Below are positions 7,456-62,976 of a stretch of DNA of 64,000 bases, piece by piece. The stretch covers positions 5,582,001 to 5,646,000 of the forward strand of contig CM075996.1 of assembly GCA_038087875.1 (NCBI GenBank), read 5' to 3'. Within the stretch, counting starts at the first letter, position 1. Each line of letters begins with the position of its first letter. The stretch is from Malacoraja senta (lineage: Eukaryota). A program made the position numbers and the translations under genes. Under the pieces are notes generated by a model that worked only from the letters and a program-made list of their open reading frames with translations, had not been told where the DNA came from and made no database searches.

Positions 7456-7511
7456 CGCTGAAGAGTCCTGCTGCATTTCACGAGCAGAGGAGGAGCTTGG
7501 AGAGGGCACGG
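7456..7511 (+). CDS. MRTFA: MRTF exon: end of RPEL1 and linker, (P)LKSPAAFHEQRRSLERAR
   Basis: ctctctcttgcAG acceptor, GTAAGT donor; peptide matches the recalled MRTF-A sequence. Confidence 0.92.
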
Positions 7512-60300: not shown

Positions 60301-62976
60301 TATATATATGTGTGTGTATATATATATAAATATATATGTGTGTGTGTGTGTGTGTGTGTATATATATATATATGTGTGTGTGTGTATATATATATATATA
60401 TATATATATATGTGTGTGTGTGTGTATATATATATGTGTGTGTGTGTGTATATATATATATATATATATATATGTGTGTGTGTGTGTGTATATATATATA
60501 TATATATATAGTGTGTGTGTGTGTGTGTATATATATATGTGTGTGTGTGTGTTATATATATATATATATATATATATATGTGTGTGTGTGTATAATATAT
60601 ATATATATATATATATATATATATATGTGTGTGTGTTGTGTATATATATATATATATATATATATGTGTGTGTGTGTGTGTGTATATATATATGTGTGTG
60701 TGTGTGTATATATATATATATATATATATATATATGTGTGTGTGTGTGTATATATATATATATATATATATGTGTGTGTGTGTGTATATATATATATATA
60801 TATATATATATGTGTGTGTGTGTGTGTGTATATATATATATGTGTGTGTGTGTGTATATATATATATATATATATATATGTGTGTGTGTGTGTATATATA
60901 TGTGTGTGTGTGTGTGTATATATATATATATATATATATCACTGTCCTCTTAACAGTGGTGCAGAAGTAGAGCCACTGCCTCACAGCGCCAGAGACCCGG
61001 GTTCGATCCTAACCACGGGCGCTGTCTGTACAGAGTTTGCACGTTCTCCCCGTGACCAGCGTGGGTTTCCTCTGTGTGCGGTTTCCTCCCACACTCCAAA
61101 CACGTGCAGGTTTTGTAGGTTCATTGGCTTTGGTAAAAAATTGTAAACTGTCCCTAGTGTGTGTGTGTAGGATAGTGCTAGTGCACTGGCACGTACAGAT
61201 CGCTGGCCGGCGCGGACTCGGAGAGCCGAAGGGCCTGTTTCCGCGCTGCATCGCTAGTGTCTAATGGAGCCTTCCCTTCACATCAGAAACTGGGTCTCAA
61301 CCAAACTCTTCAGCGGAGGGAACGATGGAAACTGAGGGTGTCCCATAAACCCTAACAACCTCTGTGAGTCATAGAGAGAGAGAGACAACAGGGAAACAGG
61401 CCGTTCGGCCCACCGAGTCCCTACCGACCATCAGACCTCCATTTTTACACAAAGTGCTGGAGTAACTCAACGGGTGATATATATATATACTGTATATACA
61501 CATACAGCGTGGAAACAAGCCCTTTGGCCCAACTTGCACACACAAACCAACGTGCCCCATCTACACTAGTCCCACCTGCCTGCATTTGTCACGGTTTAAT
61601 TTTATTGATATATATTTATATATATATATACACATGCACAGACACACATATCTATATATACGGAATATACACGCACACACACATATACACACACACATAC
61701 CTGTGTATATATATATGTGTGTGTATTTATATATAAATATGTGCATGTATATATATGTATGTATGTGTGTTTGTAAATATATGAATGCATTTGTAAGTTA
61801 TATATATATGTGTGATTGTGTGTGTGTGTGTGTATATGTGTATATATATATATGTATACACACACACATATAACATATTTTATATATATATATGTGTGTG
61901 TGTATGTATATATATATGTGTGAATATATATATATATATGAATTAAATAAAAATATGTCAAACGCAAGCTGGTGGGACTAATGTAGATGGGGGATGTTGG
62001 TCAGTGTGGACAAGTTGGGCCGAAGGGCCTGTTTCCACACTGCATGACTATGAATCTATCTGTCTAAGTGTCTTTGAAATGCTGTTATAATACTTGCCTC
62101 CACTGATATTGGACTTCAATGCTTGGTGACCAATTCCTCCTGCTTCTACAACCACCTGTTTTGTTTTCTTTCCGCAGACTCGCGAGTTCTTTCAGTTCTG
62201 GCCTGGTGCGGTAGCTTCCGAGGATGCGAGCTCCTGCCCAGAGTAGGTACAGATGCACAGGAGGACAGGGGTGCACAGCGCCACACACACAATGCTCTTT
62301 TTTTTTATAAACTCCAGCTCAATACTCACACTCTTTAAATGTGTAAGGAGGAACTGCAGATGCTGGTTTAAACCGAAGATAGGCACAAAAAAGCTGGAGT
62401 AACTCAGCGGGACAGGCAGCGTCTCCGGAGAGAAGGAATGGGTGACGTTTCGGGTGACCCGAAACGTCACCCATTCCTTCTCTCCGGAGACGCTGCCTGT
62501 CCCGCTGGGTTGCTCCAGCTTTTTTGTGTCTATCTTCGCACAGTTTAAGCTTGGTGGCCACACTGGGGTACAGTCTGCAACTAGTCTTTTCTGGATGTGT
62601 TCCCTATTGTTATAGAGTCGGAGAGAGAAACAGCATGGACACAGACCATTCGGCCCATCAAGTCCGCCACCGAGGGGAAACGATTTAATAGGAATCCGAA
62701 GGGGAACTTTTTCGCACAGAGGGTGGTGGGCGTATGGAACAATCTGCCGGAGTTGGGGCTGGGACTATCCCAACATTTATGAAACAATTAGACTGGTACA
62801 TGGATAGGACAGGTTTGGAGGGATATGGGGCAACTGCAGGAAGGTGGGATAGTATATCTTGGACATGTTGGGCTGAAGGGCCTGTTTCCAGGCTGTATGA
62901 CTATGAATATATTTTCCTTGCAGCATGAAACCCTTCATCCAACAGTCCTTTAATCTTCACCACACTGCTATCTCAG
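57126..62976 (+). CDS. TEAD1: TEA-domain transcription factor (TEAD1-like sequence; possibly the TEAD2-lineage paralogue), 3'-partial. Coding exons: 57126-57327, 57907-57971, 58675-58737, 62196-62242, 62924-62976
   Basis: [72 protein letters not shown] is the TEA DNA-binding domain; all junctions are GT-AG with consistent phases. Confidence 0.92.
57907..57971 (+). CDS. TEAD1: TEAD exon: [22 protein letters not shown]
   Basis: ttctccctcAG acceptor, GTACGT donor; 65 nt; invariant TEA sequence. Confidence 0.96.
58010..58445 (+). repeat. Degenerate (TG)n microsatellite in a TEAD intron
   Basis: Seen directly. Confidence 0.93.
58675..58737 (+). CDS. TEAD1: TEAD exon: [21 protein letters not shown] (recognition helix H3)
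   Basis: ccgacAG acceptor, GTAGGG donor; 63 nt. Confidence 0.95.
59821..60939 (+). repeat. Compound (CA)n/(TA)n/(TG)n microsatellite block
   Basis: Alternating TA and TG runs over ~1.1 kb; CA-rich part first, TG-rich part after. Confidence 0.97.
60955..61256 (+). mobile_element. V-SINE (HE1-like)
   Basis: A/B boxes, V-domain, tail. Confidence 0.82.
62196..62242 (+). CDS. TEAD1: TEAD linker exon: [15 protein letters not shown](D); alternative in-frame acceptor at 62178 adds TREFFQ
   Basis: tttcAG acceptor, GA|GTAGGT donor; 47 nt; FWPG motif as in TEAD1 FWPGMIQTGQPGSSQD. Confidence 0.78.
62924..62976 (+). CDS. TEAD1: TEAD Pro-rich linker exon: (D)[18 protein letters not shown]
   Basis: ttttccttgcAG acceptor, G|GTAAGA donor; resembles TEAD1 DVKPFVQQAY. 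Confidence 0.82.

Follow-up and report, generated by a model that had tools for sequence, protein, structure and literature searches.

Linked MRTFA and TEAD2 genes in the skate Malacoraja senta: a likely seam between two small post-duplication chromosome segments

Introduction

To which members of their families do an MRTF gene and a TEAD gene lying side by side in a skate genome belong, and how did they become neighbours? Both lie in a stretch of 64,000 nucleotides of Malacoraja senta, called here the window, which covers positions 5582001-5646000 of a 10.84 Mb scaffold (C20). The original prediction, made from the letters of the window, took the MRTF gene for a full-length, RPEL-bearing ancestor of MAMSTR, that is the fourth paralogue from the two rounds of genome duplication (2R), next to a TEAD2-lineage gene. 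In our analysis, by contrast, the first gene falls into the MRTFA group and the second into TEAD2; their adjacency probably arose by fusion and shuffling of two small post-duplication segments in cartilaginous fishes, a reading to which we give a probability of about 0.92. The identity of the first gene is partly known already, as its close relatives are annotated MRTFA or MRTFA-like.

Methods

The MRTF-family tree was computed from 37 chosen rows and 715 columns under LG+G4 without a mixture model, with a tunicate outgroup and no mammalian MAMSTR. Rows left out were the Rhinoraja and S. canicula MRTFA-like proteins, guinea pig MRTFA, P0345, Pristiophorus MRTFB, a sturgeon protein, Discoglossus MAMSTR and a seahorse protein. 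The TEAD tree comprised 23 rows, with neither human TEAD2 nor a named TEAD1 among them. The myocardin-like group was found by profile search; one member used as a query led to named amphibian and reptile MAMSTR, and look-ups added the sharks. Neighbouring genes were read from 800 kb of flank.

Results

Layout of the locus

The sequence motifs quoted in the original prediction were all found where it had put them, on the plus strand, and the features are collected in Table 1. Twelve MRTF exons fall within 7456-34015 and five TEAD exons within 57180-62976. From the end of the MRTF stop codon to the TEAD ATG there are 23,164 bases, which agrees with the predicted distance of about 23 kb; the common strand across the 200-N gap, itself also correctly noticed, holds only as assembled, the contig just upstream being probably inverted in the scaffold. 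The two TEAD introns across the TEA domain measure exactly the expected 579 and 703 nt and have GT..AG ends, and the GC richness ascribed to the TEAD exons applies to four of the five present in the window (58-61% GC) and fails for the fifth (43%). The MRTF gene had been described as complete in its architecture, which it is not within the window: the window begins about 15 kb downstream of the RPEL1 exon and 44-65 kb downstream of the 5' exons, and in each of two exons the assembly lacks one base. At the other side, the TEAD gene continues for about 10 kb beyond the window end.

None of the 148 unmasked open reading frames of at least 45 aa between MRTF and TEAD matched Pfam, and no other gene was detected there. 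No splice joints were seen among the public run contigs matched to the window, these matches being swamped by repeats. A C-rich tandem repeat at 24259-25041, within the intron that precedes the SAP exon, produces a spurious 646-aa proline-rich open reading frame, and the intronic open frames at 17643-18338 and 22092-22619 are presumably fragments of LINE retrotransposons.

Table 1 Features of the M. senta window (coordinates of the window)
Feature	Position	Strand	Remarks
MRTFA exon, RPEL1-RPEL2 spacer	7456..7511	+	RPEL1 exon upstream of window, about -15187..-15122
MRTFA exon, RPEL2	8908..8983	+	Pfam RPEL E=7.5e-8
MRTFA exon, RPEL3	10059..10219	+	Pfam RPEL E=2.7e-10; in-frame TAG in the assembly, which lacks one base near 10213
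MRTFA exon, acidic/serine-rich region	16769..16941	+	
MRTFA exon	19836..19961	+	
MRTFA exon, basic (B1) and glutamine-rich, predicted SRF-binding region	20079..20329	+	carries YHQYMPP
MRTFA exon leading into SAP	23661..23819	+	one base short in G run near 23740 as assembled
MRTFA exon, SAP domain and leucine-zipper-like region	25095..26117	+	Pfam SAP E=9.1e-11
MRTFA exon	27224..27328	+	
MRTFA exon	28195..28350	+	
MRTFA exon, start of C-terminal (activation) region	31982..32039	+	
MRTFA last coding exon with stop	33495..34015	+	
Intergenic seam, 22q13-type block / 19q13.33-type block	34016..57179	.	about 46% self-repeated; holds 200-N gap 49425-49624
TEAD2 first coding stretch, TEA domain start	57180..57327	+	Pfam TEA
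TEAD2 TEA exon	57907..57971	+	
TEAD2 TEA exon, domain end	58675..58737	+	
TEAD2 linker exon	62175..62243 (approximate ends)	+	
TEAD2 linker exon	62924..62976	+	five YAP-binding-domain (YBD) exons beyond window, about 66920-74107

The MRTF gene groups with MRTFA

The 37-row tree has the topology ((MYOCD, MAMSTR),(MRTFB, MRTFA)), every clade containing cartilaginous as well as bony members, and the window gene is nested in MRTFA together with bony-vertebrate MRTFA at a support of 100/99, with MRTFB, MYOCD and MAMSTR outside this group. Constraining it to join MAMSTR costs 171 log-likelihood units (AU test on this set lacking mammalian MAMSTR, p-AU 0.000161). The domains are those of MRTFA (MKL1/MAL): three RPEL motifs, RPEL2 and RPEL3 within the window and RPEL1 upstream of it, a basic and Q-rich region, SAP, a zipper-like region, and a C-terminus of the MRTFA/B type, unlike that of MYOCD or MAMSTR. 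The proteins closest to the window genes come from skates, and the basic/Q exon finds its best matches in elasmobranch proteins named MRTFA or MRTFA-like. In the RPEL region 114 of 120 residues, counted from the alignment, are identical between the thorny skate orthologue and mouse MRTF-A (2YJE). Judged by its sequence, this is an ordinary MRTFA orthologue. It differs from bony MRTFA in the absence of a short C-terminal extension, in the TEAD2 gene downstream, in a Met typical of batoids within the YHQY motif, and in retaining the ancestral ATQM and LPVD, which are replaced by derived residues in bony MRTFA.

Two of these motifs had suggested other readings. ATQMKLKR and LPVD, for which the gene was considered a mosaic of A-like and B-like parts, occur also in shark MRTFB and in little skate myocardin and are thus ancestral, not specific to B. 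YHQYMPP, taken as a sign of MAMSTR, is present in three of six elasmobranch orthologues, all batoids (the three sharks have YHQYVPP), and in only one of twelve MAMSTR-clade rows; on the residues compared it is a batoid change.

Sharks possess a MAMSTR (MASTR; also 'myocardin-like' or si:dkeyp-69b9.3) of their own at another locus. The proteins P0514, P0371 and P0357, from Heptranchias, Heterodontus and Scyliorhinus torazame, form a clade whose sister, at 100/100, is bony MAMSTR, and both together are sister to MYOCD. In Heterodontus and S. torazame the MAMSTR gene and the TEAD2-like gene are on different scaffolds, and the Heptranchias MAMSTR gene sits on a scaffold that is unplaced. The Heptranchias protein P0514 has SAP, a basic/Q region and two RPEL stretches that score above the Pfam threshold, and frog, lizard and coelacanth members of the clade keep one RPEL. 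With MAMSTR the window gene has in common the family, the SAP domain and one residue present also in the lizard protein. The annotated N-termini of its orthologues differ from the myocardin/MASTR type; a MEF2-binding N-terminal motif is described as common to MYOCD and MASTR in the part of PMC3362810 available to us. Two further members of the MAMSTR clade (P0550, P0477) carry other names, MRTFA in Polypterus and myocardin in Latimeria, and are probably misnamed.

Searches of the M. senta genome for a second MRTFA returned only C20 and the MRTFB gene on contig C5, a weak negative because searches of this genome also missed MYOCD, MAMSTR and TEAD4. The RPEL3 exon as a query found the window only and missed MRTFB, so its sensitivity was limited; with a sturgeon myocardin stretch and shark MAMSTR as queries neither gene was found. 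The remaining RPEL matches belong to genes which we take to be PHACTR-like, or are noise. For MYOCD, MAMSTR, TEAD4 and a third KDEL receptor, none of which was found in the genome searches, incomplete assembly, low sensitivity and loss are all possible.

The TEAD gene belongs to the TEAD2 lineage

The lineage foreseen for the TEAD gene was borne out. At a support of 100/99 it falls in one clade with frog TEF-4, lungfish proteins and the chondrichthyan proteins labelled 'TEF-1-like', a clade outside which TEF-3, TEF-5 and the TEAD gene on C3 are found; the neighbours downstream of the window gene are of the 19q13.33 type. With TEAD2 (TEF-4) it also has in common YBD residues present in frog TEF-4, TULP and NUCB1 genes nearby, and a compact structure (about 17 kb of coding span vs about 99 kb for the C3 gene); an older chimaera annotation likewise named the gene of this lineage TEF-4. 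Raw similarity to PDB chains counts against TEAD2, human TEAD1 being highest and human TEAD2 last of four, which may reflect fast change in mammalian TEAD2; a PDB search with one short YBD exon did not separate the paralogues. Further differences from TEAD2 are the long skate branch (0.14), several changed TEA-domain residues, the usual NCBI label TEF-1-like in elasmobranchs, and a post-TEA linker exon absent from the skate proteins seen, of which window positions 58738-62180 hold no trace. Short TEAD2 forms without this exon occur in rays, chimaera and frogs too. On its tree position and neighbours, the window gene is an ordinary TEAD2 orthologue.

Separate TEAD loci are present elsewhere in the genome, on C3, C5 and C3100. 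The C5 gene groups with TEF-5 at 96/94, and that on C3 is taken as TEAD1 by elimination and from its residues.

Neighbours of two different types

In the upstream flank of MRTFA we noticed exons encoding parts of a CCCH zinc-finger protein, a PAR-bZIP protein, mitochondrial aconitase (E=5e-36 to PDB) and a PPPDE peptidase, which we take to be ZC3H7B, TEF, ACO2 and DESI1 of human 22q13.2; the DESI1 exon matches weakly (Pfam E=0.0035), with nothing found for it in PDB. Downstream of TEAD2 we noticed exons with GARIL, Tub, NUCB1_N, GFO_IDH_MocA (dihydrodiol-dehydrogenase family) and RPS11-family matches, presumably TULP2, NUCB1, DHDH and RPS11 of human 19q13.33. Two further genes on the scaffold, encoding a SoxE protein and a KDEL receptor, were taken for SOX10 and KDELR3; for scaffold genes, the paralogue names TEF, TOB2, SOX10, KDELR3, TULP2 and PLEKHA4 are our assumption. 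The first exon of the SOX10-like gene appears twice on C20, at 113323 and 951693 (L063, L064), with the same translation, possibly as a haplotype duplication in the assembly. Orthologues of 19q13.33 genes, looked for among the flanking genes, were thus found on the TEAD side, the MRTF side being of the 22q13 type. With 22q13-type genes upstream and 19q13.33-type genes downstream, the window represents a seam between two post-duplication segments.

In the available parts of Lamb 2021 (PMC8040251), MRTFA is assigned to cell 4A and TEAD2, located in human at chr19:49.34 Mb, to cell 6D, and MAMSTR is not in the list. According to its table S1 the two cells are on different chromosomes in bony vertebrates, and the three post-2R fusions given there do not include one of 4A with 6D.

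The locus in other species

MRTFA and TEAD2 are found on records of equal length in seven of the nine species listing both, the other two being uninformative (Cetorhinus has an unplaced TEAD, and the S. torazame genes come from different assemblies). Near-consecutive accessions for the two genes were seen in one of six species compared, Hemitrygon, where they are 6-11 apart.

On little skate chromosome 37 (Leri_37) we take Mgat3, Hmox1, Sox10, Rbx1, Srebf2, Mpst and Pla2g6 to be 22q genes and Cnot3, Ap2a1, Pold1, Snrnp70, Lin7b and Ube2m to be 19q13 genes. Genes of the two types alternate at least five times along this chromosome, in a reading based on 90 of its 243 places (PMC10115646). SI Table 10 of that paper puts Rps11 at 6.01, Nucb2-2 at 6.14, Bcat1-2 at 6.22, Tead1-2 at 6.48 and Zc3h7b at 6.95 Mb, so that the order Rps11, Nucb, Tead, Zc3h7b equals that of M. 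senta in reverse; MRTFA itself is not among its searchable little skate tables. The chromosome, which carries Sox10 along with Tead1-2, resembles our scaffold around the seam. It differs in how it is classified: SI Table 3 has LER37 only under H (the H-beta segment) and marks O 1-beta as 'missing in all gnathostomes?', whereas SI Table 10 has many 19q13-type genes on LER37.

A fusion of H and O segments is not mentioned in the text outside the figures of PMC11406177 or PMC10153176. In the literature on MAMSTR/MASTR/TEAD2 evolution in cartilaginous fish and on their karyotype we found no paper on the MRTFA-TEAD2 pair; a depiction of the mixed chromosome may exist in PMC10115646, in the figures or in two large supplementary PDFs.

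Discussion

The arrangement can be explained by two small post-2R segments, one of the 22q13 type (Lamb cell 4A, CLG-H beta) and the other of the 19q13.33 type (cell 6D, CLG-O beta), which would have joined no later than in the ancestor of sharks and rays. Inversions may then have interleaved both segments, and one of their breakpoints would have left MRTFA beside TEAD2, an adjacency that would in itself be neutral.

It is unlikely that the close adjacency or common strand arose as a scaffolding artefact at gap 49425. Three alternative MRTFA 5' exons are located on the minus strand between two gaps, at about 5515269-5560564 of C20 (window -66731..-21436), and since they are opposite in strand to the rest of the gene, contig orientation is fallible here; the contig holding them is probably inverted, and this, together with the SoxE exon present twice on the scaffold, speaks for such an artefact. 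Against it stand the little skate, where Rps11, Nucb, Tead and Zc3h7b are ordered alike, the single record holding both genes in seven species, and the accessions of Hemitrygon. The linkage of MRTFA with TEAD2 is therefore likely real, with strand and exact distance known as assembled.

Selection might have kept the two genes together through shared mechano-responsive enhancers or co-regulation, an idea we regard as quite unlikely. It would fit the lack of any other detected gene between them, the position of the interval inside one little skate fin TAD (5.51-7.34 Mb, PMC10115646) and the reliance of each pathway, MRTF-SRF and YAP-TEAD, on the other in fibroblasts (PMC5795783). However, in the accessible part of the latter source this dependence is described as indirect, through the cytoskeleton, so it needs no genomic linkage. 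Moreover, bony vertebrates do not have the two genes linked, Leri_37 switches between the two blocks at least five times, the seam being one such place, and chondrichthyan gene order is conserved in general (PMC10115646). The proposal that the locus physically ties MRTF-SRF to YAP-TEAD effectors in a functional way finds no support.

The two exons that are one base short could mark the M. senta MRTFA copy as a frameshifted pseudogene, which is very unlikely given its 96% identity to thorny skate, its short branch (0.019) and the location of one deletion within a homopolymer. Annotated orthologues read through both sites, and over 9882-10288 a public run contig has one letter more than the assembly, with one gap (whose position is not printed) and no other difference; an assembly error is the likely cause, and both short exons are probably such errors.

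Finally, that the MRTF gene is an RPEL-bearing MAMSTR ancestor still linked to TEAD2 is scarcely credible: a TEAD2-lineage neighbour with a 19q13.33-type block behind it, frog MAMSTR and TEAD2 on one chromosome by record length (e.g. X. tropicalis 133,565,930) and YHQYMPP common to the window gene and Anolis MAMSTR all favour it, but the very grounds on which the original prediction was to fall, grouping with MRTFA, 22q13-type upstream neighbours and, as a weak negative, no second MRTFA in the genome searches, are what we found, and the AU test, the C-terminus and the shark MAMSTR clade with its separate loci agree with them.

As an MRTFA orthologue, the skate protein is predicted to act as mouse MRTF-A does: its three RPEL motifs would bind G-actin, actin polymerisation would free it for entry into the nucleus, and the basic/Q region would engage SRF. 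Such G-actin-controlled shuttling and SRF coactivation are suggested by conservation (PMC9900090, in the part available). For TEAD2 the predicted partners are DNA, contacted by the TEA domain, and YAP/TAZ, contacted by the YBD.

The locus thus holds no ancestral actin-regulated MAMSTR, and nothing in it is evidence for a physically coupled MRTF-TEAD module. The names used in elasmobranchs can be corrected, 'TEF-1-like' to TEAD2, 'MRTFA-like' to MRTFA and 'myocardin-like' to MAMSTR. On balance we favour the view that the window is the seam of a previously unrecognised post-2R fusion-with-mixing of CLG-H beta (22q13) and CLG-O beta (19q13.33), common to sharks and rays, by which O-beta, flagged as possibly missing in all gnathostomes, would survive on skate chromosome 37; and that, separately, an RPEL-bearing MAMSTR ancestor does exist at another locus, as the myocardin-like gene of which Heptranchias P0514, with two scoring RPEL and the basic/Q region, is an example. 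Shark MAMSTR would then be the place to study the loss of the RPEL and SRF-binding modules, and the MRTFA-TEAD2 pair would provide a gene-level marker for a chondrichthyan microchromosome composed of two paralogon segments, a point relevant to the ancestral gnathostome chromosome count.
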